Source: Betaproteobacteria bacterium
GTDB lineage: Bacteria > Pseudomonadota > Gammaproteobacteria > Burkholderiales > JBEEJL01
Direction: 5' to 3'
Length of the DNA stretch: 34,090 bases
Assembly (NCBI GenBank): GCA_043772415.1
Contig: JAYVGF010000094.1
Location: forward strand, 1 to 34,090
The notes under the pieces: model-generated
The model's input: the letters and a program-made list of their open reading frames with translations, nothing else
What the model was told of the DNA's origin: nothing
Database searches by the model: none
Shown here: one piece after another, positions 2,064-34,090 of the stretch
Numbering within the stretch: the first letter of the stretch is position 1
Layout: every line of letters begins with the position of its first letter
Made by a program: the position numbers and the translations under genes

Positions 2064-2240
2064 TTTATTTGCGTTAAAAACTTGCTAATTGGCAAAATTT
2101 TTGCGTCAACAAAAAATGATGCGTCAGCGCGCATTTCTTTCTTTATATTCAGCGAGCTTGTCGAAAATCCGCCTAGCGGCTAAAGTGTCGGACATTGCTG
2201 ATCTGCAGCAACGCCACCCATCCCGCTTTGGAGACTCACC

Positions 2241-2849
2241 TTGCTTTCTATTATTGAAGCGGCCGGCTGGCCGATCTGGACGCTGATTCTGGCTTCCATT
2301 ATTTCCCTGGCGATTATCGTCGAGCGCTTTCGTTTTTTGCGTGCTGAAGTCGTTGCGCCGAAAGATTTGCTCACCAAAACCATTAACCAATATAAACAAA
2401 CCGGCGTCACCAGCGAAATGCTCGGTGCCTTGCGCGACAATTCGCTGCTGGGAAAATTATTCGCCACCGCTTTATATAACGTCAAAAGCTCGCGCGATGC
2501 GATGAAAGAAGCTATCGAAGAAACCGGCCGCGTCGTGATGGTCGATTTGGAAAAATTCCTCACCTCGCTTGGTACCATTGCGTCGGTCAGCCCGCTGTTG
2601 GGTTTGTTCGGCACGGTGATCGGCATGATCGAAATTTTCGGCTCGACCAATGCAGTCGGCAGCAATCCGGCGGCGTTGGCGCACGGCATTTCCGTCGCGC
2701 TGTATAACACCGCCTTCGGTTTGATCGTCGCCGTGCCGAGCATGATTTTCTACCGTTACTTCCGCACCAAAGTCGATAACCTGTTGGTATCGATGGAGCA
2801 GGAATCGATTAAGTTGGTCGAGGTGTTGCACGGGGACCGCCGCGCATGA
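2241..2849 (+). CDS. exbB: MotA/TolQ/ExbB proton-channel family protein
   Basis: Three TM segments and the conserved C-terminal PLLGLFGTV.GMI..F and A..T..GL.VA.P motifs. TTG start with GGAG 7 nt upstream. ATGA overlap with exbD. Confidence 0.85.
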   Translation: MLSIIEAAGWPIWTLILASIISLAIIVERFRFLRAEVVAPKDLLTKTINQYKQTGVTSEMLGALRDNSLLGKLFATALYNVKSSRDAMKEAIEETGRVVMVDLEKFLTSLGTIASVSPLLGLFGTVIGMIEIFGSTNAVGSNPAALAHGISVALYNTAFGLIVAVPSMIFYRYFRTKVDNLLVSMEQESIKLVEVLHGDRRA

Positions 2850-3268
2850 ACCTGCGCCGCGGACATCATCGCGAAGACCCGGAGATCAACCTCATCGCGC
2901 TGATCGACGTGTTGTTGGTGATACTGATTTTTCTGATGGTCACGACTACTTATTCGCGTTTTTCCGAGCTGCAAATCAATTTGCCCGAATCCGGCGCGGA
3001 AGCCAATGTCACCCAGACCAAATCCAAAATCCTGCACGTCGCCGTCGATTCCAGCGGCAATGCCTTTGTGGGAAAACAACCGATTCCCACTATGCGTATT
3101 GATCTTATCGGTGCAGCGCTGACTAGTGCCGCCGCAGGCATGACCGATCCTGTCATCGCGATTAACGCTGACGCAGGGGCATCGCATCAAGCGGTGATTA
3201 ATGTGATGGAAGCCGCGCGCAGCGTGGGTCTGACGCATATAACTTTCGCTACCCAGACTAAAAAATAA
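2846..3268 (+). CDS. exbD: ExbD/TolR biopolymer transport protein
   Basis: 140 aa. The N-terminal INLIALIDVLLVILIFLMV single TM segment and periplasmic domain are typical of ExbD/TolR. Translationally coupled to exbB. Confidence 0.85.
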   Translation: MNLRRGHHREDPEINLIALIDVLLVILIFLMVTTTYSRFSELQINLPESGAEANVTQTKSKILHVAVDSSGNAFVGKQPIPTMRIDLIGAALTSAAAGMTDPVIAINADAGASHQAVINVMEAARSVGLTHITFATQTKK

Positions 3269-3294
3269 ATCTTACTTGCCGCGAGTCTCTATCC

Positions 3295-4308
3295 ATGTCT
3301 CGCTTTATTGAATCACTTTGGTACCGTATTTCTCCCTGGCATATTTTGCTCTGGCCGTTGTCGCTGCTTTACGGAACAGTGACGATGATTCGCCGCGCGT
3401 CTTATACTGCGGGCATTTTCAAAATACAAAAGTTGCCGGTTCCTGTCATCGTTGTCGGCAATATTACGGCGGGTGGCAGCGGTAAAACACCTTTGGTGAT
3501 TTGGCTTGCCGAATTCTTACGCAACAACGGTTATCAGCCCGGCGTGATCAGTCGGGGTTATGGACGTGAAGGAGATGAGACGCGCGAAGTTTCCGCGCAA
3601 AGCCAAGCAACCGATGTAGGCGACGAGCCATTGTTGATTTTCCGCCGAGCAATATGTCCGGTCGTTGTTGGCCGTAATCGAGTTGAAGCGGCGCAAACTT
3701 TGCTAGAAAAAAATCCGCAAGTAAATGTCATTATCAGCGACGATGGCTTGCAGCACTACAAGTTGACGCGCGCTATGGAGATTTGCGTTGTCGATGGTGC
3801 ACGCGGGTTCGGTAACGGCATGTTGATTCCCGCGGGCCCATTGCGTGAAACTACTGCGCGCTTGCATCTAGTGGATGCCATTATCGTCAATGGCGGAGAA
3901 AAAAATAATGTAATAAAATCAAATAGTTATAAATCATCTATGCATCTGGCCGGTGCGCAATTTTTGCACCTGAAAAACACGCAACCACCAGCCACTGCCG
4001 AAAACTTCACAGGCAAAAACATTCACGCCCTTGCCGGCATCGGTAACCCCGCGCGATTTTTTGCCCATCTCAAATCATTAGGTTTGCAATTTACCGAACA
4101 TACTTTTTCCGACCACTATGGTTTTAGTGCCAAAGATATCGCTTTTGAAAACGCAGAAGTAATACTCATGACGGAGAAAGACGCGGTAAAATGTGGCTCA
4201 TTCGCCACTGAGCAGTGCTGGTCGCTGGCAGTAAGCGCGCAACTCGACCATTCGTTTGGTGAACTTGTTCTCGCCAGGATGAAACTAATGAAGGAATCAA
4301 GATCATGA
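3295..4308 (+). CDS. lpxK: Tetraacyldisaccharide 4'-kinase
   Basis: P-loop [23 protein letters not shown] and MTEKDAVKC motifs. Lies in the conserved lpxK-trm112-kdsB arrangement. Confidence 0.92.
3903..3933 (+). repeat. AT-rich ~30-bp dispersed repeat, copy 2, embedded in frame in lpxK
   Basis: AAATAATGTAATAAAATCAAATAGTTATAAA is identical to 10736..10766 at 30 of 31 positions. It encodes ..[10 protein letters not shown].. in a variable loop between NGG and MHL. Confidence 0.8.
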
Positions 4309-4484
4309 ATCCGAAGCTGCTGGAAATTCTCGTCTGCCCGATATGCAAAGGTCCGCTAGTGTATAAAAAACCTGCCCAGGAATTAATCTGCAAAGCGGAC
4401 CGTCTCGCGTTTCCGATTAAAGACGATATTCCGGTCATGCTCGAAGCCGAAGCGCGCCAATTACCGGCCACCGAAGAAGTATGA
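4305..4484 (+). CDS. Trm112 / UPF0434 (YcaR) family small protein
   Basis: Hand translation gives [59 protein letters not shown]. At 59 aa it falls below the track cut-off. ATGA overlap with the lpxK stop; its TGA overlaps the kdsB ATG. Confidence 0.85.
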
Positions 4485-5242
4485 GCTTTCACGTCATTAT
4501 CCCCGCGCGCATGGCGTCGATGCGCTTGCCGAATAAGCCTCTCGCTGACATCGGGGGCCAGCCTATGATCGTGCGCGTCGCGCAACAGGCGGCGAAGAGC
4601 GGTGCGGCGAGCGTGACGGTGGCGGGCGATGATGCAAGAATTATTGATGCCGCTAAAGCCGCCGGCTTCAATGCGCAGATGACCGATCTGCATCACACTT
4701 CCGGCACCGAGCGCATCCATCAAGCGGCCACGCTGCTCGGCCTTGATGACGACGCCATCGTGGTCAATGTGCAGGGCGATGAGCCATGCATTCCGCCGCA
4801 ACTGATCGCGCGTGTCGCTACAGAATTGGCGCAACAAAAACATGCAGTGATGGCGACAGCGTGCCATGCGATCCACGATTCCGCAGATATGCTGAACCCG
4901 AATATTGTCAAAGTGGTGATTAACGCTGATAGCCTCGCCATGTATTTCAGCCGCGCGCCGATTCCGTACCCACGCGAGCATTTTACCCAGCATGAAGTAG
5001 ATCATTTTCCCCAAGGATTGCCGGCTTATCGTCACATCGGCATTTACGCCTACCGCGTCGGCTTTTTAAAAATTTATGCCGACCTGTCGCCGACCGCAAT
5101 GGAAAAATTTGAATCGCTGGAACAACTGCGCGTGCTATGGCATGGGTATAAAATTGCGATGAGCGTGGTCGAAGTCGCTCCGCCTGCGGGTGTCGATACG
5201 CCGGAAGATTTAGCACGAGTGCAAAAACTGTTTACACAATAA
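4481..5242 (+). CDS. kdsB: 3-deoxy-manno-octulosonate cytidylyltransferase (CMP-KDO synthetase)
   Basis: N-terminal IIPAR..S.RLP.KPL..I.G.PMI, plus VNVQGDEP and E.LEQLR.L..G motifs. Confidence 0.92.
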
Positions 5243-5253
5243 TTTTAATTTAG

Positions 5254-5922
<669 letters not shown>

Positions 5923-5964
5923 AAGCTCACCACAGAGGCACAGAGAAAAGCAAAATTAGAAACT

Positions 5965-5997
5965 GTCATTCTGAGCGATAGCGAAGAATCTGCTTTT
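5965..5997 (+). repeat. Solitary arm of the GTCATYCTGAGCG-TAGCGAAGRATCTGC repeat family
   Basis: GTCATTCTGAGCGATAGCGAAGAATCTGCTTTT matches both arms of the inverted repeat at 8250..8342. Confidence 0.75.
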
Positions 5998-6020
5998 AAA
6001 TGGTAAGCATCATTAATTAA

Positions 6021-6077
6021 CGTCATTCCACCACTTCCCCTCCCCCTCGACGGGGGAGAGCTAGGGTGGGGATGACG
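6021..6077 (-). repeat. G/C-tract hairpin repeat (GGGTGGGGATG family)
   Basis: CGTCATTCC..CCCCTCCCCCTCGACGGGGGAGAGCTAGGGTGGGGATGACG. This imperfect ~57-nt hairpin is related in reverse orientation to the hairpins at 40-78 and 8662-8700, and in the same orientation to 8164-8202. Confidence 0.7.
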
Positions 6078-6108
6078 GAGTCAAAAACAGAATTTGATCG
6101 AGGGAATT

Positions 6109-7374
6109 ATGGCGATAAAAAAACGAAACGCTTTTTACGCACAATCCGGCGGTGTCACTGCCGTCATCAACGCATCCGCGTGCGGTGTGATTGAAACCGC
6201 GCGCAAACACAAAGACAAAATCGGCAAAGTATATGCGGGCCGCAACGGCATCATCGGCGCACTGACGGAAGACTTGATCGACACGTCGAAAGATTCCGCC
6301 AAGTCCATCGCTGCGCTTCGCCACACACCGGCGGGCGCGTTCGGTTCGTGCCGCTATAAATTAAAAAGCGTGGAAGAAAATCGCGCGCAATACGAGCGTC
6401 TGATCGAAGTATTCAAAGCACACGACATCGGTTACTTTTTTTACAATGGCGGCGGCGATTCTGCGGACACTTGTCTAAAGATTTCGCAATTGTCGGAAAA
6501 AATGGGTTATCCCTTGCAAGCTATTCTTGTGCCGAAAACCATTGATAACGACCTGCCCATCACCGACACTTGCCCGGGCTTTGGTTCAGTCGCCAAGTAC
6601 GTCGCAACATCTATTCGCGAGGCGGCGTTCGATGTCGCGTCGATGGCGAAAACCTCGACCAAAGTATTCGTGCTCGAAGTGATGGGCCGTCATGCAGGCT
6701 GGATCACCGCCGCATGCGGACTCGCGGCAGAGCAGGTGGGCGATGCGCCGCATATATTGCTATTTCCGGAAATCGCTTTCGACGAGAAAAAATTTCTCGC
6801 CAAAGTGGAAGATACCGTTAAAAAATACGGCTATTGCGTTATCGGCGTGAGTGAAGGTTTGCACACCGCCGACGGAAAATTTTTATCCGAAAGCGGCTTG
6901 ACAGATGCCTTCGGCCACGCGCAACTCGGCGGTGCCGCGCCGGTGATTGCCAATCTGGTCAAAGATAAACTCGGCTATAAATATCACTGGGCCGTCGCCG
7001 ATTATTTGCAACGCGCCGCGCGCCACATCGCCTCGAAGACCGACGTCACACAAGCCTACGCCGTCGGCAAAGCGGCAGTGGAACTTGCGCTCAAAGGCCA
7101 CAACTCCGTCATGCCCGCCATCACGCGCACCAGCGACAAACCGTACAAATGGAAAATCACCACCGCACAATTAAAAGACGTCGCCAACGTGGAGAAAAAA
7201 ATGCCGCGTGATTTCATCACCACCGATGGCTTCGGCATCACGGAAAAATGCCGCAAATATTTATCGCCGCTGATCGCCGGTGAAGATTACCCTCCCTTCA
7301 AAAACGGCTTGCCCGATTATGTGAAGTTGAAAAATATCGCAGTAACGAAAAAACTAAAAGCATTCAAAATTTAA
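6109..7374 (+). CDS. pfp: Pyrophosphate-dependent 6-phosphofructokinase (PPi-PFK, ~420-aa type)
   Basis: The N-terminus NAFYAQSGGVTAVINASACGV, together with GGGDS, PKTIDNDL and MGRHAGW, fits the PFK-A superfamily. Length and N-terminus resemble the methanotroph/nitrifier PPi-PFK clade as I remember it. The first ATG with an RBS (GAGGGA) is at 6109; the track start at 6094 is a TTG. Confidence 0.75.
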   Translation: MAIKKRNAFYAQSGGVTAVINASACGVIETARKHKDKIGKVYAGRNGIIGALTEDLIDTSKDSAKSIAALRHTPAGAFGSCRYKLKSVEENRAQYERLIEVFKAHDIGYFFYNGGGDSADTCLKISQLSEKMGYPLQAILVPKTIDNDLPITDTCPGFGSVAKYVATSIREAAFDVASMAKTSTKVFVLEVMGRHAGWITAACGLAAEQVGDAPHILLFPEIAFDEKKFLAKVEDTVKKYGYCVIGVSEGLHTADGKFLSESGLTDAFGHAQLGGAAPVIANLVKDKLGYKYHWAVADYLQRAARHIASKTDVTQAYAVGKAAVELALKGHNSVMPAITRTSDKPYKWKITTAQLKDVANVEKKMPRDFITTDGFGITEKCRKYLSPLIAGEDYPPFKNGLPDYVKLKNIAVTKKLKAFKI

Positions 7375-7405
7375 TCAGCTAGTCTAAGGATACAAAGGAA
7401 TAGTC

Positions 7406-7753
7406 ATGGGCATACAACTCACCCGCCACACCCCGGATTTTGCTACCTCACCGCAGGTGAAAATAGAGGAAATGAAAGAAGTGGTTAGCTTGGGTTTCAA
7501 AACCCTGATCAACAATCGGCCAGACGGCGAAGCCGCCGACCAACCTACCAATGCGCAAATCCAAGAAGCAGCAGCGGTATTCGGCCTACATTATATTTTT
7601 CTGCCGGTAGTGAGCAGCCAAGTAGGCAGCGCAGCGGCAGAATTCGGCAAGCTGTTGGCCGCCGCACCGAAGCCCGCGCTAGCATTTTGCCGCTCGGGGA
7701 CGCGCTCGACTATGCTTTATCAGACGGCGATGTCGCTGAAGCCAAACAAGTAA
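7406..7753 (+). CDS. TIGR01244-family protein (DUF442, phosphatase/sulfurtransferase-like)
   Basis: 115 aa. The GFKT.INNRPDGE...QP motif and C-terminal CRSGTRS are characteristic of the family. Confidence 0.7.
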   Translation: MGIQLTRHTPDFATSPQVKIEEMKEVVSLGFKTLINNRPDGEAADQPTNAQIQEAAAVFGLHYIFLPVVSSQVGSAAAEFGKLLAAAPKPALAFCRSGTRSTMLYQTAMSLKPNK

Positions 7754-7780
7754 ACCAGCAGCTGCTTTGTAAAATAAAAT

Positions 7781-8143
7781 ATGGAAATCAAACAAGGCTC
7801 TTGCCACTGCGGCGCAGTCGTTTTTCAAGTCGAGTTAGTCAATGGTTTGGAAAATCTGCGCCGTTGCAATTGTTCGTTGTGTAAACGCAAGGGTGCGGTG
7901 ATGGCCGATGTGCCGTTGGATAAATTGAAAATAATAAAAGGCGCGGACAAGCTGACTTTGTATCAGTGGAATACGCGTACAGCCAAGCATTATTTTTGCA
8001 GCGTGTGCGGCATTTATACGCATCACCAAAGGCGCAGCGATCCGACGCGCTATGGATTTAATGTGGCGTGTGTTGAGGATGTGGATGTGAATCAGCTTGG
8101 GGAGGTTGCTTTAGGTGATGGGGCGAAGCAGAGTTTGGTGTAA
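7781..8143 (+). CDS. GFA (glutathione-dependent formaldehyde-activating / CENP-V) family protein
   Basis: GSCHCGAV...CNCS.C.+.G....YFC..CG zinc-binding cysteine pattern. Confidence 0.8.
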   Translation: MEIKQGSCHCGAVVFQVELVNGLENLRRCNCSLCKRKGAVMADVPLDKLKIIKGADKLTLYQWNTRTAKHYFCSVCGIYTHHQRRSDPTRYGFNVACVEDVDVNQLGEVALGDGAKQSLV

Positions 8144-8163
8144 CGGATCGCTCGTCGTTACAG

Positions 8164-8202
8164 CGTCCCCTCCCTTTCAAGGGGAGGGTTAGGGTGGGGA
8201 TG
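8164..8202 (-). repeat. G/C-tract hairpin repeat (GGGTGGGGATG family)
   Basis: CGTCCCCTCCCTTTCAAGGGGAGGGTTAGGGTGGGGATG, in the same family and orientation as 6021..6077. Confidence 0.7.
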
Positions 8203-8249
8203 GGTGTATTGCTTACGACTTGTATCTCGTCGCAACCTTCCTCCGAAGT

Positions 8250-8342
8250 CTTGTCATCCTGAGCGCTAGCGAAGGATCTGCTTTTCGATGTTGATTTGAC
8301 GCGTGTAACAGCAGATTCTTCGCTAGCGCTCAGAATGACAAG
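8250..8342. repeat. Inverted repeat, 33-bp arms with 26-bp spacer (MITE-like)
   Basis: Left arm CTTGTCATCCTGAGCGCTAGCGAAGGATCTGCT (8250-8282). The right arm at 8310-8342 is its reverse complement at 31 of 33 positions. Confidence 0.85.
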
Positions 8343-8387
8343 TCCATTATTTAATCGAAGAGAGAGGGTTGCCCACCCTTCTGCGCC

Positions 8388-8513
8388 GCTGATATTTTTG
8401 TTGTGAATCGGGGGCCGTCGGCGAGAACCTGTTTGAGCTACGCGGTGATTAAGATTTCAATTGAAGGTAAAAGCGAGTTTTCTCGCCGCCCGATTCACAA
8501 CAAAAATATCAGC
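8388..8513. repeat. Inverted repeat, ~35-bp arms with ~52-bp spacer (MITE-like)
   Basis: GCTGATATTTTTGTTGTGAATCGGG..GGCGAGAA (8388-8427) against TTCTCGCCGCCCGATTCACAACAAAAATATCAGC (8480-8513). The left arm carries a 6-nt insertion. Confidence 0.85.
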
Positions 8514-8523
8514 GACAACAAAC

Positions 8524-8590
8524 CCAAAAAAAAGGCAGCGCGGCGGGTTCGCCTTTTTTGGTTACTTTTTTGGCGAAGCAAAAAAGTAAC
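8524..8590. repeat. Two adjacent A/T-tract palindromes
   Basis: CCAAAAAAAAGGC..GCCTTTTTTGG, followed by GTTACTTTTTTG-GCGAAG-CAAAAAAGTAAC. Confidence 0.7.
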
Positions 8591-8661
8591 TAGCCGCCGG
8601 GCTACCCCCGGCACTCTCATTCAGGGCTCGACTCATTCAGTCGAGGATAATCGAACCAGCA

Positions 8662-8770
8662 CCCCCATCCCAACCTTCCCCCGTCAAGGGGGGAAGGAGC
8701 TTGTGCATTTGTTGTTCGCACGTAGGGGATAAATTTGCAAGCCTTACGCGTGCGCGCGGCGCACCCTACA
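8662..8770. repeat. Composite ~110-bp intergenic repeat, copy B
   Basis: Aligns with 40..148 and ends 3 nt before the stop of the minus-strand DUF2147 gene, the same relative position as copy A behind the dodecin gene. Confidence 0.8.
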
Positions 8771-8773
8771 AAA

Positions 8774-9220
8774 TCATTCCACTCTCAACCAAGTCTGCGT
8801 GCGAAATAAAGGCCCGATATAGCCGCGTACTTTTAGTTTTTTGCCGTCGTCTTCCAGCCACAATTTACATTGATAAATCTTGCCGTTGTCCGGGTCCATG
8901 ATGGTGCCGTCTTTGTATTCATCTTCATGTTTTTTCAGCTGGTTGATGATTTTCATGCCGATGATGGGTTGGTCTTTGAGTTCGCCCTGGCACTTGTCGC
9001 ACTTTGGATTCGGATCTTCGTTCGGTTCGTGGAAACCTTTTTCGATCATGCCGTCATACAAACCAGCGTTCTGGCTAATTCGCACAATAGAGCGCGGCTT
9101 ACCAGTGTTATCGTCGATGCTTTTCCACGCGCCGACGATCGAAGATGTGTCGGCGCGTGTGTGCGCGGTGAATAAGCTTGCTGCAAGTAATATCAATGAA
9201 AAATATTTATTCGTGACCAT
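8774..9220 (-). CDS. DUF2147 domain-containing secreted protein
   Basis: Signal peptide, then G.W..IDD.TGK.+S.V.I, C..C.G..K..PI.GM.I and DP.NGK.Y.C...L...G..L.VRGY motifs. Confidence 0.75.
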   Translation of the reverse strand: MVTNKYFSLILLAASLFTAHTRADTSSIVGAWKSIDDNTGKPRSIVRISQNAGLYDGMIEKGFHEPNEDPNPKCDKCQGELKDQPIIGMKIINQLKKHEDEYKDGTIMDPDNGKIYQCKLWLEDDGKKLKVRGYIGPLFRTQTWLRVE

Positions 9221-9223
9221 CCT

Positions 9224-9252
9224 GAATAATTAAATATAATCAATAAGTTACA
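9224..9252 (+). repeat. AT-rich ~30-bp dispersed repeat, copy 3 (degenerate)
   Basis: GAATAATTAAATATAATCAATAAGTTACA matches the reference copy at about 23 of 29 positions. The core ATCAATAAGTTA fits WATCAANNNNTTR. Confidence 0.5.
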
Positions 9253-9257
9253 GTTAG

Positions 9258-10607
9258 TTAAAGAGCGATACGAAAGGGACAACCGGTTTTCGCTGTCACT
9301 TCTTCGAGCGTCACACCTTCGTGCAGTTCAATCAATTTTAAGCCTTTACCCGCTTCGACTTCAAACACACACAAGTCGGTGATGATTAAATTCACCACCG
9401 CTTTGCCGGTAATCGGCAACGAGCATTGCTTGAGAATTTTTGGCGTGCCGTCTTTGGCGGTGTGTTCCATCAACACCACGACGCGCTTCACGCCCGACAC
9501 CAAGTCCATCGCACCGCCTGGTCCTTTGACCATTTTGCCCGGCACCATCCAGTTGGCGAGGTCGCCGTTTTCGGCGACTTCGAGTCCGCCTAATATCGAC
9601 AAGTCCACATGCCCGCCGCGTATCATGGCGAAAGAATCTGCGCTGCTGAAAAAACTCGAACCGGCAATCGTGGTGATAGTTTGTTTACCGGCGTTAATCA
9701 AATCGGGATCGACTTTATCTTCTGTCGGAAAAGGTCCGATGCCGAGCAAACCGTTTTCCGATTGCAGGATGACGTTGATGCCTGTGGGAATGTGATTGGC
9801 GACGAGTGTCGGAATGCCGATACCGAGATTAACGTAATAGCCATCGCGTAATTCTTTCGCCGCGCGCGCGGCCATGGTGTCGCGTATCGGCGTATCTTTT
9901 TTCGACGCGGCAGCGCCGGACACGGTGCGAAACTCGATGCGCTTTTCGTAATTTTTGCCTTGGATAATGCGATCGACATAAATGCCCGGCGTGTGGATTT
10001 GGTCCGGGTCGATCTGGCCGATTTCGACTAACTCTTCTACTTCTGCGACGGTGATTTTGCCGCAGGTGGCGATCATCGGATTAAAATTGCGCGAGGTTTT
10101 GTTATAAACCAAGTTGCCGGCTTTATCGCCTTTCCATGCTTTGACGATGGAGATGTCGGCCTGGATGGCTTCTTCCAACACATAGTCTTTGTCGCCGAAT
10201 TTTTTGGTTTCTTTACCGTCGGCAAGTTTGGTGCCGAAGGCGGTGCGCGTGTAAAAGCCCGGTATGCCCGCGCCGCCTGCGCGTAATTTTTCTGCCAGCG
10301 TGCCTTGCGGTGTGAGTTGTAATTCCAGTTCGTTGGCCAACACTTGGCGTTCGAATTCTTTATTCTCGCCAACGTAAGAGGCGATGACTTTTTTCACCTG
10401 GCGCGATTTCAGCAGCAAGCCCATGCCGAAATCATCCACGCCTGCATTGTTGCCGACGATGGTGAGATTCTTCGCGCCGTTTTCTACCAGCGCGCTGATT
10501 AAATTTTCCGGTATGCCGCACAAACCGAAACCGCCGGCGGCGATAGTAATATTGTCTTTGAGAATATCTTTGAGGGCGCTGTGTGCGTCAGGAAATACTT
10601 TGCTCAT
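9258..10607 (-). CDS. 3-oxoacid CoA-transferase with fused A and B subunits (SCOT-like)
   Basis: The N-terminal half carries GGFGLCG.PE.L and the subunit A fold. The C-terminal half carries NLGIGIPT and the catalytic-Glu motif SENG(L/I)LG of subunit B. It is one uninterrupted 449-aa ORF. Confidence 0.85.
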
Positions 10608-14763: not shown

Positions 14764-14815
14764 TTATTTTATACTCATAAAAATAAACTTTAATTTAATC
14801 AATGGCTTGGTTTTT

Positions 14816-14831
14816 AGGAACGGAAATTGCA
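14816..14831 (+). promoter_or_regulatory. Sigma54 (-24/-12) promoter candidate for amt
   Basis: AGGAACGGAAATTGCA compared with consensus TGGCACG-N4-TTGCA. The GG and GC elements are correctly spaced, and the site is about 36 nt upstream of the ATG at 14867. Confidence 0.6.
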
Positions 14832-14866
14832 TTATTGCATCGGATAACTATTCACAGGGGGAAGTA

Positions 14867-16081
14867 ATGGACGCTTTAGTCACCAGTAGTAACACACTCT
14901 TTATTTTGCTCGGCGCGATTATGATTCTCGCCATGCATGCGGGCTTTGCGTTTTTGGAGCTCGGCACGGTGCGCAAGAAAAATCAGGTCAACGCGCTGGT
15001 GAAAATCCTGTGCGATTTTAGTGTTTCGACCATCGCTTATTTTTTCATCGGTTATTTCATCGCTTACGGCACGCACTTTTTTGTCAACGCTGATGTGTTG
15101 TCGGAAAAATCCGGATATGAACTGACCAAGTTTTTTTTCCTGCTGACTTTTGCCGCGGCGATCCCGGCGATTGTGTCCGGCGGCATCGCCGAACGGGCGA
15201 AATTTAATCCGCAACTTGCCGCGACGTTTATTCTGGTCGCGTTCATTTATCCCTTGTTTGAAGGCATCGCGTGGAACCAGCGCTTCGGCATTCAAGCTTG
15301 GCTCAAAGGCGCTTTCGGCGCGGAGTTTCATGATTTCGCCGGTTCGGTGGTCGTGCATGCGATGGGCGGCTGGATTGCCTTGGCCGCTGTCGTATTGCTC
15401 GGCGCGCGTCGTGGGCGTTACGGCAAAGACGGCCGCGTGTCGGCGCATCCGCCTTCGAGCATTCCGTTTTTGGCTTTGGGCGCGTGGATACTCACCGTCG
15501 GCTGGTTCGGTTTTAACGTGATGTCGGCGCAAACGCTGGATAAAATTTCCGGCTTGGTCGCGATGAATTCGCTCATGGCGATGGTCGGCGGCACGCTGGT
15601 CGCGTTATGGGTCGGCAAAAACGATCCGGGCTTTGTACATAACGGCCCGCTCGCGGGTTTGGTCGCCGTGTGCGCAGGCTCGGACATCATGCATCCGCTC
15701 GGCGCGCTGGCGACGGGCGCGATTGCTGGTGGATTATTTGTCTATATGTTCACCCTGACGCAAAACAAATGGAAAATCGATGACGTGCTCGGCGTGTGGC
15801 CGTTGCATGGTTTGTGCGGCGCATGGGGCGGCATTGCCGCAGGCATTTTCGGCCTCAAGTCTTTGGGCGGCACGGCGAACGGCGAAGCGGGCATCAGCTT
15901 CATGGCGCAAGTGGTCGGGACTTTGATGGGCGTCGGCATTGCGTTGGCCGGAGGATTCATCGTCTATGGATTGCTCAAAGCAACCATGGGTTTGCGCCTC
16001 GACGCCGAAGAAGAATTTGAAGGCGCGGATTTGAGCATCCATAAAATCTCCGCTACCTCAGAGCGGGAAACTAACTGGTAA
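14867..16081 (+). CDS. amt: Ammonium transporter (Amt family)
   Basis: About 11 TM segments. Motifs include FILLGAIMILAMHAGFAFLE.G, DFAGS.VVH..GG and a W-rich pore region. ATG at 14867 is preceded by GGGGGA; the upstream in-frame extension from 14729 is AT-rich leader sequence. Confidence 0.9.
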   Translation: MDALVTSSNTLFILLGAIMILAMHAGFAFLELGTVRKKNQVNALVKILCDFSVSTIAYFFIGYFIAYGTHFFVNADVLSEKSGYELTKFFFLLTFAAAIPAIVSGGIAERAKFNPQLAATFILVAFIYPLFEGIAWNQRFGIQAWLKGAFGAEFHDFAGSVVVHAMGGWIALAAVVLLGARRGRYGKDGRVSAHPPSSIPFLALGAWILTVGWFGFNVMSAQTLDKISGLVAMNSLMAMVGGTLVALWVGKNDPGFVHNGPLAGLVAVCAGSDIMHPLGALATGAIAGGLFVYMFTLTQNKWKIDDVLGVWPLHGLCGAWGGIAAGIFGLKSLGGTANGEAGISFMAQVVGTLMGVGIALAGGFIVYGLLKATMGLRLDAEEEFEGADLSIHKISATSERETNW

Positions 16082-16131
16082 GGAATTGATGATCATGACG
16101 ACCAATCCGCATCCACGTGAGGAGAGCCGTC

Positions 16132-16911
16132 ATGACCAAGCCATTGAAATATTCCGTTTTTATTCTCAGCGCACTCGCTGCTGCGCACCCCGCCTACGCC
16201 GCAAGCTGTAACGCAAAAAGCGGCGCAGGTACCGCTGCGCTGCTCGAACTTTATACTTCCGAAGGTTGTAGCTCCTGCCCGCCTGCTGATAAATGGGTCA
16301 GTAGTCTGGGTATCAAACCAGACAAGTTGGTGCCTATCGCGCTGCATGTCGGCTATTGGGATTACATTGGTTGGAAAGACGAATTCGCCAAGCCCGAGTT
16401 CTATCGCCGCCAAAGCGAATACGCCAGCCTACATAATAAATCCGGCGTGTTCACGCCGCAAACCGTGCTTAACGGCAAAAATCTTTCTACTGGCAGCAAT
16501 GGCAAATTGAGCGATGCACTCGCCGCCATTAACGCGACGCCAGCGCGTGCGGATATCTCACTTGCGTTGAATTCAGCAGCGAATGGTGTCGTCGAAGTAT
16601 CAGCCAAAGGCCGTGTAAAGGGCGCCGACGCGCGCGAACATAGCGCCGGTTATCTGGCGTTATACGAAAACAAATTATTTTCGCAGGTGAAAGCCGGTGA
16701 GAACAGCGGCGAAAAACTCCACCATGATTTTGTCGTGCGCGAATGGATCGGTCCGCTGGCGCTCGACATTAACGGTGATGTGGAAGCGGAGAAAAAATTA
16801 ACGCTGAAACCAGAATGGAAAACAGCCAATTTGGGTGTAGCGATGTTTATCCAGAACCGCAGCAACGGGGAGGTGCTGCAGGCACTGTCGCTTCCTTTGT
16901 GCATGAATTAA
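16132..16911 (+). CDS. DUF1223 domain-containing (thioredoxin-like) periplasmic protein
   Basis: Signal peptide, then ELYTSEGCSSCPPAD, HV.YWDYIGWKD.F and RQ..Y motifs. ATG at 16132 follows GAGGAG; the track start at 16117 is a GTG. Confidence 0.8.
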   Translation: MTKPLKYSVFILSALAAAHPAYAASCNAKSGAGTAALLELYTSEGCSSCPPADKWVSSLGIKPDKLVPIALHVGYWDYIGWKDEFAKPEFYRRQSEYASLHNKSGVFTPQTVLNGKNLSTGSNGKLSDALAAINATPARADISLALNSAANGVVEVSAKGRVKGADAREHSAGYLALYENKLFSQVKAGENSGEKLHHDFVVREWIGPLALDINGDVEAEKKLTLKPEWKTANLGVAMFIQNRSNGEVLQALSLPLCMN

Positions 16912-25592: not shown

Positions 25593-27413
25593 ATGCAGAT
25601 CAAAAAGTTTTTTTTAGTAATATTTTTGACGCACATTTTACTTCTGCCTGCCTGCATCACGCCGGCAACGAATAATATTAACTATTTGAATATAAACAAT
25701 TTTTTTGAAGATTATTTTCGCAATAGTGTCCTCAAAAATCCTGAGCGGATAAGCTACCTCACGCTGCAAAAAAAATATGATGCCGAATCAGCCGATGCAA
25801 ATTTGACTGATCGTAGCGATGCTTTTGGGCTGCAAAGGCTGCAGGAAGAAAAAGCTGCAAGAGCCTCATTAAAGCGCTTTGACCGGACAGCCTTATCTCC
25901 ATCGGATAAATTGTCTTACGATGTATTGCTGCACAATCTACATAACCTTGAAGCCGACGAACGATTTTTTTATCACGGCTATGGTTTGAATCAAATGGAC
26001 GGCGTGCATACCGAGTTGCCATCGTTAATGCTTAACGTACATCAAATCAAATCTCTGCGCGACGCGGAAAATTATGTGATGCGTCTCGGCCAGTTCAAAG
26101 CTGCTTTTACGCAAACCATCGATGGCTTAAAACAACGCCAGCAACGCGGCATTGCGCCGCCGCGTTTCGCGCTGGAAAAAGCTTTGGCCAATATCAAAAA
26201 GTTTATTGAGCCTGCACAAGCGCAACATGTGTTGTTCACCAATCTGCAAAAGAAAATCGATGCATTGAATGATGTGGATGCGGCCGCTAAAAAACGTGTG
26301 CTAGCCGATGCTGAAAAAGCCATGAGCGCGTCGGTGTATCCGGCTTATCAACAATTGGCGGCCCATCTCGAAGCTTGGTTACCGCGAGTGAAAAATAATC
26401 ACGGCGCTTGGGCCTTGCCGGATGGCGAGGCTTATTACGCTTATCAAGTGCGCGAAAACACCAGCACTGATATGAAGCCGGAAGAAATCCATCAGTTGGG
26501 TTTAGCTGAAGTGAAGCGCATCGAAACGGAGATGCGCGCCATATTGGACAGTTTGGGTTATCGCGGCGGTAGCGTGGCGGCGGATATGAAAAAATTGGAT
26601 GCGGATCCACTGTCCAAATATCAAGATGCTTCCGAGGCGACTAAAAAACAAATCCTTGTCGATTATCAAAAAATTGTCGATGATATCAATGTGCGTATCG
26701 CCGGTTCGTTCGATATCCTGCCCATGGCAAAACTCGAAGTGCGCGCCGTGCCCGATTATCTCGAAGCGACTTCGCCCGCTGCGTATTACGAATTGCCCGC
26801 CAGCGACGGCTCGCGTCCGGGTGCTTTCTACCGTAATTTGTACAGTATTGATGACGTTAAAAAATATGAAATGAAAACCCTGGCCTATCATGAAGCCGTA
26901 CCGGGACATCATTTTCAATATGCCTTGGCGCAAGAGCTGAGCCTGCCGATGTTTCGCAAATATTCCGGCTACAACGCCTATGGCGAAGGCTGGGCACTCT
27001 ACGCCGAACGACTCGCTTGGGAAATGGGCGCGTATCAAAAAGATCCACGCGGAGATTTAGGCCGACTGGCCAATGAATTGTGGCGCGCGAGGCGTTTGGT
27101 TGTGGATACCGGCATCCATCATAAAAAATGGACGCGCGAACAAGCCATCGATTTTATGAGCGGTGGTATCAGCCCGCCGAGCCTCGACAACGTGATCGAA
27201 GTCGAGCGCTATTTCGTCTGGCCAGGGCAGGCGCTGGGTTACAAAATCGGCCAACTGAAAATCCTGCAACTGCGCGACAAAGCGCGCAAAGCATTAGGCG
27301 CAAAATTTGCACTCAAGGATTTTCACAATGTTGTGTTGACCAATGGCAGCTTGCCGCTGACTTTGTTGGAACAATTGGTGGATGAATATATTGCGCGCAA
27401 ACAAACGACGTGA
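25593..27413 (+). CDS. DUF885 domain-containing lipoprotein
   Basis: Lipobox LLPAC. The family signature HEAVPGHHFQ is present, along with the GEGWA.Y.E and D.G+H motifs. RBS AGGAGAGG. Confidence 0.85.
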   Translation: MQIKKFFLVIFLTHILLLPACITPATNNINYLNINNFFEDYFRNSVLKNPERISYLTLQKKYDAESADANLTDRSDAFGLQRLQEEKAARASLKRFDRTALSPSDKLSYDVLLHNLHNLEADERFFYHGYGLNQMDGVHTELPSLMLNVHQIKSLRDAENYVMRLGQFKAAFTQTIDGLKQRQQRGIAPPRFALEKALANIKKFIEPAQAQHVLFTNLQKKIDALNDVDAAAKKRVLADAEKAMSASVYPAYQQLAAHLEAWLPRVKNNHGAWALPDGEAYYAYQVRENTSTDMKPEEIHQLGLAEVKRIETEMRAILDSLGYRGGSVAADMKKLDADPLSKYQDASEATKKQILVDYQKIVDDINVRIAGSFDILPMAKLEVRAVPDYLEATSPAAYYELPASDGSRPGAFYRNLYSIDDVKKYEMKTLAYHEAVPGHHFQYALAQELSLPMFRKYSGYNAYGEGWALYAERLAWEMGAYQKDPRGDLGRLANELWRARRLVVDTGIHHKKWTREQAIDFMSGGISPPSLDNVIEVERYFVWPGQALGYKIGQLKILQLRDKARKALGAKFALKDFHNVVLTNGSLPLTLLEQLVDEYIARKQTT

Positions 27414-27468
27414 GTTAGAGCAACGGCGTAATGAACAACGGGCCATCATGTGTGATGGCCCGTTTGTT
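27291..27468 (+). repeat. Direct repeat, copy 1 (DUF885 3' end plus terminator)
   Basis: The 123 coding nt differ at 7 positions from 28190-28312. The terminator hairpin is shared with 28341-28368. Confidence 0.9.
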
Positions 27469-27470
27469 TT
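27437..27470 (+). terminator. Rho-independent terminator after DUF885
   Basis: AACGGGCCATCA-TGTG-TGATGGCCCGTT followed by TGTTTT. Confidence 0.8.
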
Positions 27471-27549
27471 GTAGCGCACGCTGGCGGTGCAGGTTGCCGT
27501 TGGCGTCATAAAGATTGCTGCTGGTCGTCGCTTACCATCAGAAAATAGC

Positions 27550-31247: not shown

Positions 31248-32141
31248 ATGATTTGCCCTTGCATCACAACTTTATTCGCAGACGGCATCCTCTTGCTCAA
31301 TATTGATCTTCACAGTCACTCCAACATTTCCGACGGCACGTTGCCGCCGGCCGAGTTAGTGCGACGTGCCGCGAGCAGTGGCGTCGAGGTATTGGCGCTG
31401 ACCGACCACGACAATATCGGCGGTTTGGATGAAGCGCGCGCGGAAGCGCAAAAACTCGGCGTGTTGTTTGTCAACGGCGTGGAAGTGTCTGTGTCTTGGG
31501 AAAAAACCACGTTACATATCGTCGGCCTCGGCATCGATCCTTACAACACCGAGTTGACCGCAGGCTTGCACAGCATCCGCTCCGGCCGTCATGCGCGCGC
31601 GAAATTGATGGCAGCAGATTTGATGCGCGTCGGCTTGCCCGATATCCTCGAAGGCGCTTACACCTATGCCAACAATCGCGACATGATAGGCCGCGCGCAC
31701 TTCGCGCGTTACATGGCGGAACAAGGTTTAGTCACCGATACTAAATCCGCGTTCAAAAAATATTTAGTCAAAGGCAAACCGGGCTTCGTGCCGCATCAAT
31801 GGGCGACGTTGTCCGATACGGTAAATTGGATCGTCGGCGCGGGTGGTATTGCCGTCGTCGCGCATCCCGGCCGTTACGATATTTCCGGCGCGGCCATGCG
31901 GCGTTTGCTCACCGAATTCAAATCGCTCGGTGGTCGCGCGATAGAAGTGGTCACTAGCAACCACACCAAAGACCAGGCAGGACAATACGGCGCGTTGGCC
32001 AAAGAATTTGAGCTGGCCGCCTCGCGCGGCTCCGATTATCACGGTCCGGGCGAAAGTTACACCGAGCCGGGGCGTTTGCCCAATTTGCCGACGGATTTAA
32101 CAGCAGTATGGGACGCCCATCCGATTATCCATTTCAAATAA
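31248..32141 (+). CDS. PHP-domain phosphoesterase (YciV/TrpH-like 3',5'-nucleoside bisphosphate phosphatase)
   Basis: IDLHSHS..SDG, L.LTDHD, G.E.S, AHP and GSD.H metal-ligand motifs. The start is uncertain: ATG at 31248, or TTG at 31293 giving MLNIDLHSH. Confidence 0.85.
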   Translation: MICPCITTLFADGILLLNIDLHSHSNISDGTLPPAELVRRAASSGVEVLALTDHDNIGGLDEARAEAQKLGVLFVNGVEVSVSWEKTTLHIVGLGIDPYNTELTAGLHSIRSGRHARAKLMAADLMRVGLPDILEGAYTYANNRDMIGRAHFARYMAEQGLVTDTKSAFKKYLVKGKPGFVPHQWATLSDTVNWIVGAGGIAVVAHPGRYDISGAAMRRLLTEFKSLGGRAIEVVTSNHTKDQAGQYGALAKEFELAASRGSDYHGPGESYTEPGRLPNLPTDLTAVWDAHPIIHFK

Positions 32142-32150
32142 AAAAAATCC

Positions 32151-32777
32151 ATGTCACAGTATTTTGAAATTCATCCAGACAATCCGCAGCAACGCCTGAT
32201 ACGCAGCGCGGTCGATATCATCCGCAAAGGCGGCGTCATCGTCTATCCGACCGATTCCTGTTACGCCCTCGGCTGTCACATCGGCGACAAAGCCGCGATG
32301 GAACGCATCCGTCGTATTCGTGATGTGGACGAACATCATCACTTCACTTTGGTGTGTCGCGATTTATCCGAAGTCGGCAAATTCGCCCGCGTGGATAATC
32401 TGCAATATCGCCTGATCAAACAACACACGCCGGGAAGCTACACGTTTATATTGCAGGCCACCGGCGATGTGCCGAAGCGTTTGCTCAATCCCAAGCGCAG
32501 CACTATAGGCGTACGCGTGCCATCGCATCCGGTAGCGCATGCGCTGCTGGCGGAATTGAACGAGCCGCTATTGAGTTCAACCTTGATTATGCCCGGCGAT
32601 GATGAGCCGTTGAACGACGCGCACGAAATGCGCGAAAGACTAGAGCACGATGTCGATTTAATCCTGGATAGCGGGTCATGCGGCACCGATATGACCACCG
32701 TGATAGATTTAAGCCACACGCTGCCCGTGCTTATTCGTCAAGGTAAGGGCGACATTACTTCGTTCAGTTTTGAATGA
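32151..32777 (+). CDS. yciO: L-threonylcarbamoyladenylate synthase family protein (YciO/Sua5/YrdC)
   Basis: YPTDS.YALGC, FTL.C.DLS, PG.YTFIL, R.T+G+R+P.H and L.S.S motifs. Adjacent to the yciV-like gene, as in E. coli. Confidence 0.85.
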   Translation: MSQYFEIHPDNPQQRLIRSAVDIIRKGGVIVYPTDSCYALGCHIGDKAAMERIRRIRDVDEHHHFTLVCRDLSEVGKFARVDNLQYRLIKQHTPGSYTFILQATGDVPKRLLNPKRSTIGVRVPSHPVAHALLAELNEPLLSSTLIMPGDDEPLNDAHEMRERLEHDVDLILDSGSCGTDMTTVIDLSHTLPVLIRQGKGDITSFSFE

Positions 32778-32821
32778 TATTGTAAGTATATGATTATATT
32801 AAATATTTTAGGATAAACATT

Positions 32822-33469
32822 TTGGAAGAAATCATAAAAAATATCGCCATTTACGCCATCCCCGTGATTTTCGCCGTGACCGTGCATGAGGCCGCGCACG
32901 GATACGTAGCGAAGTTTTTCGGCGATCCGACTGCCTATATGCTCGGACGCGTGACACTCAATCCGGTCAAGCACATCGACCCTATCGGAACCATTGCCTT
33001 GCCCCTGTTTCTTTTATTGGTGAGTTCAGGCGGCTTGCTGTTTGGTTACGCCAAACCCGTACCGGTTAATTTCGGTCAGTTACGCAAACCTAAACAACAT
33101 ATGTTGTGGGTGGCCGCCGCAGGGCCGGGGGCGAATCTAGTCATGCTGCTTATTTGGGCACTGCTATTCAAGCTCGGGATCGGCAATGCGCTAGGTGGGT
33201 TTAGCGAACCTTTGGTGCTCATCGCCAAGGCGGGCATCATTATCAATGCTTCGCTGATGGTGCTGAACTTGTTGCCCATCCTGCCGCTTGATGGCGGCCG
33301 TATCACCGCTAGCTTGTTGCCGATGAGCCTCGCGCGACCTTATTCGCAATTGGAGCAATACGGCATGTTCATCGTCATTGGTTTGCTTGCGACAGGTGTG
33401 TTAAGCAAAATCATGGGACCGCTGATGGAATTCGTCTTGAACCTCACGTCAAAATTATTCGGCATTTAA
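32822..33469 (+). CDS. Site-2 protease family (peptidase M50) membrane protein
   Basis: HEAAHG zinc motif in TM1, a polytopic fold and NLLPI.PLDGG motif. TTG start. Confidence 0.85.
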   Translation: MEEIIKNIAIYAIPVIFAVTVHEAAHGYVAKFFGDPTAYMLGRVTLNPVKHIDPIGTIALPLFLLLVSSGGLLFGYAKPVPVNFGQLRKPKQHMLWVAAAGPGANLVMLLIWALLFKLGIGNALGGFSEPLVLIAKAGIIINASLMVLNLLPILPLDGGRITASLLPMSLARPYSQLEQYGMFIVIGLLATGVLSKIMGPLMEFVLNLTSKLFGI

Positions 33470-33494
33470 TTTACCCCTACAGGAAAAAAACAAT

Positions 33495-34090
33495 ATGTAT
33501 CCCGACCGCGTCTTGTCCGGCATGCGCCCCAGCGGCGCACTCCATCTCGGTAATTATCACGGCGCTTTGAAAAATTGGGTCAAGCTGCAGCATGAATACG
33601 AATGTTTATTCTTCGTCGCCGACTGGCACGCGCTCACCACGCATTACGAAGACCCCGCCATCATCGAGCAGACGGTGTGGGACATGTTCGTCGACTGGCT
33701 TGCGTGCGGGGTGGACCCGTCCAAGGCGACGCTCTTCGCGCAGTCGAAGGTCCCCCAGCACGCGGAGCTCACGCTGCTGCTGTCGTTCTTCACGCCGCTC
33801 GCGTGGCTGGAGCGCGTGCCCACCTACAAGGACCAGGTCGAGAAGCTCGGCGAGCGCGGCATGGACCTCACGACCTACGGCTTCCTCGGCTACCCGCTGA
33901 TGCAGGCCGCGGACATCCTCATCTACCGCGCCACCAAGGTGCCCGTGGGCGACGACCAGGTGGCGCACATCGAGCTCACGCGCGAATTGGCGCGGCGCTT
34001 CAACCACCTCTTCGGCAAGGAAAAGGGCTTCGCGGAAAAGGCGGAGGCCGCCGTGAAGAAGATGGGCCCGAAGAAGGCCAAGCTCTACCG
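33495..34090 (+). CDS. trpS: Tryptophan--tRNA ligase (5' part, runs off the window)
   Basis: Hand translation gives MYPDRVLSGMRPSGALHLGNYHGALKNWVKLQHEYECLFFVADWHALTT...GYPLMQAADIL..VPVGDDQ..H.EL.R..A.RFN. A HIGH-type motif (HLGNYHG) is present. RBS AGGA. The gene is absent from the track because no stop codon falls in the window. Confidence 0.9.
   Translation, partial: MYPDRVLSGMRPSGALHLGNYHGALKNWVKLQHEYECLFFVADWHALTTHYEDPAIIEQTVWDMFVDWLACGVDPSKATLFAQSKVPQHAELTLLLSFFTPLAWLERVPTYKDQVEKLGERGMDLTTYGFLGYPLMQAADILIYRATKVPVGDDQVAHIELTRELARRFNHLFGKEKGFAEKAEAAVKKMGPKKAKLY

Follow-up and report, generated by a model that had tools for sequence, protein, structure and literature searches.

A probable inter-species assembly chimera within trpS at the end of a betaproteobacterial metagenome contig

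The window analysed here (34,090 nt) is the complete contig C94 of the metagenome-assembled genome (MAG) G000, a species representative with 368 contigs, 2.34 Mb of sequence, 51.9% GC, a completeness of 82% and a contamination of 0.43%. Close to its right-hand end, and all on the plus strand, lie the genes for a PHP-domain protein (31248–32141), a Sua5/YciO/YrdC protein (32151–32777) and an M50 peptidase (32822–33469). They are followed by trpS, which begins with an ATG at 33495 and remains open through to the contig end at 34090. The three upstream ORFs provide a native context: their DNA (31248–33469) is identical to that of L193, a database sequence described below on which the same genes carry Pfam labels, and they are collinear with the same-genus genomes G002 and G003. 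The product of trpS is a bacterial tryptophan-tRNA ligase of class I, with a HIGH-type motif (HLGN) at residues 17–20 and KMSKS in the native C-terminal part of the protein. A match to the family profile PF00579 (tRNA-synt_1b) is precomputed for P0241, the intact protein encoded on L193, and for all relatives. Both halves of the gene on C94 are ordinary members of the ~400-aa betaproteobacterial form, and the enzyme itself has nothing unusual when set against known tryptophan-tRNA ligases.

What is unusual is the composition of the 3′ part of the gene. GC in 150-nt sliding windows goes from 0.47–0.56 at 33400–33700 to 0.66–0.69 at 33650–34050. The value for 33641–34090 (0.658) ties the maximum among the 14,697 windows of 450 nt that cover the 2.34-Mb genome (mean 0.519, sd 0.041; z = 3.4 for the tail). 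Read in the frame of trpS, the sequence has its maximum-likelihood change point at codon 52 (nt 33651), where GC at third codon positions (GC3) passes from 0.69 to 0.973, and the whole tail (33651–34090) has a GC of 0.664. As a reference for GC3, 1,667 long ORFs of the MAG supplied 5,980 windows, each 146 codons in length; the mean over these windows is 0.605 (sd 0.070) and the maximum 0.863, so that none of them reaches 0.9. Codon choice follows the same pattern. All 13 Lys codons of the tail are AAG, and 15 of its 17 Leu codons are CTC or CTG, while the native equivalent of this segment, which is found on contig C127, has AAG once and AAA seven times, and CTC or CTG at only 3 of 16 Leu codons.

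The original prediction had described an abrupt break in GC and codon style inside trpS, and this is confirmed by the sliding GC, by the GC3 values and by the counts of Lys and Leu codons. The spurious ORFs that it mentioned in other frames, at 33592–33900 (+) and 33606–34007 (−), are present in the ORF list, and other genes with the same high GC3, which could have spoken for a native origin, do not occur in the ORF windows of this genome. As to position, it had let the native style end at about 33610 and the high-GC style begin from about 33650. The second figure is right; the first is too early, as the departure from native sequence comes ~40 nt later, at 33651. Since the window is an entire contig, only 440 nt separate the break from a contig end, and the finding lies within the last ~480 nt. 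Assembler artefacts tend to accumulate in such places.

A search of the MAG revealed a second piece of trpS, on the minus strand of contig C127. In the reverse complement of this contig (C127rc), homology to trpS starts exactly at CTCACCACGCATTACGAA and runs for 354 codons to a stop. This piece is written in the native codon style, with a GC3 of 0.54 over the segment equivalent to the C94 tail, and its product shows 91–94% amino acid identity to the genus. In both G002 and G003 a single locus is collinear first with the end of C94 and, beyond it, with C127rc from 2096. When the C127 part was used as a protein query, it retrieved P0241, an intact TrpS of 400 aa in which residues 1–52 correspond to C94 and the remainder to C127. 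Its DNA (L193) is from a 52,014-nt scaffold of ENA assembly ERZ28573533, and aligns with 0 mismatches and 0 gaps both to C94 27495–33650 (6,156 nt) and to C127rc 2096–9160 (7,065 nt). The two perfect alignments overlap by exactly 18 nt (L193 6139–6156). This stretch, coding for LTTHYE, is at 33633–33650 (+) in the window and is matched exactly by C127rc 2096–2113; it is the sole sequence common to C94 and C127. The gene order on L193 (PHP, Sua5/YrdC, M50 peptidase, trpS, DUF817, SDR, GST, CCA-adding enzyme) unites the genes of C94 with those of C127.

The native 5′ part of trpS on C94 thus comprises codons 1–52 (MYPDRV...ALTTHYE; 33495–33650, +), without a single nucleotide mismatch to the intact gene on L193. 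The first base that departs from the native sequence is 33651, and 263 mismatches are found from there onward. The native counterpart of the tail, as seen on C127 and L193, has a GC of 0.49. Judged by these alignments, the true local sequence is C94 1–33650, followed by the reverse strand of C127 from its position 2114. Because its record coordinates coincide with those of C94, both alignments starting at 27495, the L193 scaffold probably starts at the same base as C94; its source may be the same data or sister data, and it is not a fully independent sample. The join that it displays has further backing from conserved gene order in three other genomes of the genus and from a reading frame that stays intact. 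L193 also carries a Gp49/HI1420-type pair and, at 696–881, a second copy (86.7% identical) of a ~180-nt stretch located at 27291–27471 in the window. A short tandem repeat, made up of two adjoining ~136-nt copies with 92.6% identity and an offset of 105 nt, is present at C127rc 8760–9000 (L193 12803–13043), inside or close to the last gene shown on L193.

When the halves of the C94 gene are compared separately, their best relatives differ: the genus itself on the left, Usitatibacteraceae on the right. Residues 1–52 of the protein are 98–100% identical to same-genus genomes and about 85% identical to Usitatibacter-like loci; for residues 53–198 the corresponding values are 73–75% and 84–88%. 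At the nucleotide level, the segment 33495–33608 has 84–87% identity to same-genus genomes and 65–72% to Usitatibacter-like loci, and the segment 33651–33824 has 63–65% and 84–89%, respectively. Across the intervening stretch (33609–33650), where both comparisons give 86–95%, the identities swap between the lineages. Among named organisms, the tail is best matched by Usitatibacter palustris, Betaproteobacteria bacterium GR16-43 and many Usitatibacter sp. MAGs. Closest of all is a partial locus, L104 (JGI contig Ga0163144_10060139, 66% GC), with 94.1% nucleotide and 96% amino acid identity to the tail. The 5′ part of its own trpS is only 71% identical (nucleotides) to C94 33495–33608, which indicates that the tail is a piece of an ordinary, wholly high-GC trpS belonging to another betaproteobacterium.

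Attempts to find the exact donor gave no match for an exact 48-mer of the tail in metagenome contigs, and among proteins, with a composite query scored on residues 53–198, the best full-length TrpS reached 92%. On composition and identity, the segment that extends to the contig end, 33651–34090 (+), represents codons 53–198 of a Usitatibacteraceae-like trpS with high GC. The suggestion that the final ~450 bp are foreign to this replicon therefore holds, as the tail groups with the Usitatibacteraceae and not with the genus, and as the native sequence is known and departs at 33651. From these comparisons we consider it almost certain that the tail is an artefactual, foreign join. The break in trpS on C94 is not a real biological feature.

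The place of the switch is itself informative. Native and donor sequence are indistinguishable in the crossover zone at 33609–33650 (+), which encodes FFVADWHALTTHYE, and the switch is located there, within the highly conserved FFVADWHALTT segment as had been proposed. Among 160 Usitatibacter-like trpS genes, 63 have an exact match to the native gene, 21 nt or more in length (up to 33 nt), that overlaps this zone. Over the whole 1.2-kb gene, the same 160 genes yield 87 exact matches of at least 21 nt, 63 of which fall within 33609–33650. L104, the closest relative of the tail that was found, has three differences within the zone. The zone is the one place where, going by these matches, a small-k graph would connect both genomes. 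In the MAG, 18 contig pairs overlap by exactly 99 nt, which we interpret as the fingerprint of a de Bruijn assembler with a final k of ~99–100 (MEGAHIT with k-max 99, or IDBA-UD with maxk 100). Both programs start at k = 20–21 and pass small-k contigs forward. The last 99 and the last 31 nt of the C94 tail are absent from the other contigs of the MAG, and searches with 99-mers and 31-mers gave no links from the ends of C94 and C127 to other contigs.

The partner contig is also composite. On the plus strand of C127, positions 7932–10026 (C127rc 1–2095; loci L094 and L002) hold Chitinophagaceae DNA that is joined to the native remainder of trpS. The 2,094 nt upstream of the 18-mer in C127rc have 43% GC and encode a protein of the SelO family together with residues 1 to ~260 of a glutaryl-CoA dehydrogenase (GCDH), the latter reading out of frame into trpS. 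This GCDH is only 54–55% identical to the genus' own enzyme, a genus-type copy of which is on contig C138 of the MAG, and five same-genus genomes contain no DNA that corresponds to the SelO/GCDH fragment. Its relatives are in the Chitinophagaceae (Flavisolibacter, Pollutibacter and others), where full-length versions of 392 aa are 100% identical over the fragment. Four public contigs (18–73 kb, from four assemblies) with an intact GCDH gene differ from C127rc 1–2094 by 2–4 mismatches, and one of them is from the same sample series as L193; the scaffolds with the native and with the Chitinophagaceae sequence bear the labels BUSI22-1_SAMN19433709 and BUSI22-1_SAMN19433710. C127rc leaves these contigs abruptly at 2095. 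The junction (…GGATCCGTTG/T/CTCACC…) is blunt, with no shared k-mer, and the T at rc 2095 fits neither parent. The missing C-terminal half of the Chitinophagaceae GCDH was sought in the MAG and is absent. On this sequence evidence C127 is an inter-phylum chimera, the second chimera in the same MAG.

The most likely explanation for C94 33651–34090 is an inter-species assembly chimera produced by a shared-k-mer mis-join in the assembly graph, to which we assign a probability of roughly 0.9. The exact assembler steps set out here are a reconstruction. The MAG would have been built by a multi-k de Bruijn assembler, from a community that included a high-GC, Usitatibacteraceae-like betaproteobacterium whose trpS shared an exact k-mer with the native trpS in the part coding for FFVADWHALTTHYE (33609–33650). 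At small k, the paths of both genomes would have merged at the shared node, and the assembler would have passed from the native left arm into the right arm of the donor, halting 440 nt later. C94 was binned whole because it is 98.7% native. The native right arm, with the remaining trpS, DUF817 and the following genes, would then have been placed on C127, where its orphaned 5′ end was fused to the 2.1-kb Chitinophagaceae fragment, probably via a chimeric template or read. A link of such low support would normally be pruned; it may have survived because the true path had already been diverted into the Usitatibacter-like path, and the same diversion would explain why both bad joins are within 18 nt of each other. 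The C127 join does not fit a pure de Bruijn mis-join, in view of its lack of a shared k-mer and of the odd T at rc 2095. A join of two organisms by a k-mer-based assembler was one of two routes offered by the original prediction, and for C94 it agrees with the native 3′ part of trpS being on C127, with the tail that reaches the contig end, and with a junction at an inter-lineage k-mer hot spot.

Another technical route to the artefact on C94, such as a chimeric molecule or read (from ligation or PCR), or a scaffolder or gap-closer acting on a short overlap, is possible but unlikely. It would suit the native overlap between C94 and C127, which at only 18 nt is below the usual minimum k of 20–21, and the blunt C127 junction with its stray base is what a chimeric template might leave. 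However, the C94 junction falls at the inter-lineage k-mer hot spot, which a graph mis-join would predict and random ligation would not, and the stretch common to donor and native gene may be longer than 18 nt, given that relatives of the donor share up to 33 nt. A chimeric-read or scaffolder route would leave the conclusion that the tail is foreign unchanged.

The other route of the original prediction was homologous recombination with a high-GC donor allele. In that case trpS would be a real mosaic in a native subpopulation, its 3′ part replaced from a Usitatibacteraceae donor and the exchange resolved in the FFVADWHALTT stretch. The reading frame is indeed kept across the C94 junction, with the hybrid ORF open to the contig end, and a conserved stretch is where recombination could also resolve. 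Nonetheless, such an allele is very improbable here. On L193 the same population has the native, non-mosaic gene, at 100% nucleotide identity, and the 3′ part of that gene is present in the same bin on C127, which together speak against the recombination proposal. Divergence in the flanks is ~35% at the nucleotide level, far above the usual tolerance of homologous recombination. The tail ends with the contig after 440 nt and never returns to native sequence; rather than flanking the foreign segment on its far side, the native downstream DNA is attached to native trpS, on C127 as on L193. Moreover, at the same 18-mer the partner contig is joined, out of frame, to Bacteroidota DNA, an arrangement that would not occur in a viable genome. 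A variant in which a minority strain carries the hybrid trpS with a Usitatibacteraceae 3′ part, the assembler having caught the start of this allele while the majority native allele went to C127, is judged to be every bit as improbable. A native shift in composition, with a high-GC3 3′ part of trpS in the lineage itself, could appeal to the natively GC-rich segments at the start of C110 and the end of C367, which are collinear with relatives, but its likelihood is close to nil, a GC-rich trpS end being excluded by the known sequence of the native segment on C127 and L193 (GC 0.49, GC3 0.54) and exceeding the GC3 of every ORF window in the genome.

With the graph mis-join as the preferred reading, C94 resembles the chimeras known from short-read metagenomes (the ‘interspecies translocation’ of MetaQUAST, and the targets of metaMIC, DeepMAsED, ResMiCo and DeepMM), in that two genomes meet in one contig at a conserved region, the whole contig went into one bin, and contamination estimated from markers is low (0.43%). 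It differs from them in that the foreign piece is very short (440 nt), terminal and inside the excluded outer 1 kb of the contig, and in that C127, the reciprocal native arm, is fused in its turn to a third organism. MEGAHIT MAGs commonly contain chimeras at conserved regions, and misassembly detection tools omit the outer 1 kb of contigs (bioRxiv 10.64898/2026.10.15.759294), so a terminal chimera of 440 nt passes unnoticed. Short terminal chimeras, in other words, sit in a zone that is deliberately ignored by current misassembly detectors.

Genes for aminoacyl-tRNA synthetases are well-known subjects of horizontal transfer. Like mosaic or horizontally transferred members of this group, the two parts of trpS on C94 differ in phylogenetic affinity and in composition. 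Unlike them, the gene is a mosaic only in the contig; the intact gene of the same population is documented, and the missing half is elsewhere in the bin. As trpS here is an ordinary gene, the break has no biological significance. The practical consequences are more tangible, as a species-representative MAG carries at least two inter-organism joins that are hidden from marker-based quality control. The foreign 2.1 kb on C127 create a false ORF, a truncated GCDH fused to TrpS, and a false extra SelO. Inference of horizontal transfer, codon-usage work, pangenomes and gene catalogues that use this MAG would be misled at the joins on C94 and C127.

The problem of foreign joins is not general to the bin. 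A genome-wide scan for terminal GC steps proved unspecific, with many native AT-rich or GC-rich ends scoring higher. The view that high-GC foreign ends abound in the MAG was dropped after three ends of deviant GC (the start of C110 and the ends of C367 and C218) had been spot-checked and found to be collinear with four same-genus genomes, and native. On C218, an AT-rich segment of ~2 kb (~41% GC; ~14789–16820, corresponding to L198 2289–4320) is missing from the otherwise collinear locus G002:C7, and looks like a strain-specific island, not a chimera. On C367, at ~5486–5577 (L195 1486–1577), there is an element of ~40 nt with dozens of copies, 88–97% identical, scattered over all four of the same-genus genomes searched; these copies form a dispersed family of REP-like repeats in the genus.

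The trpS locus is interrupted in other MAGs of the genus as well. In G005, contig C20 (~5014–5959) stops at TrpS residue 156, and in G001, contig C329 (1–118) begins just upstream, in the M50 peptidase gene. The locus seems to be a recurrent assembly break point in the genus.
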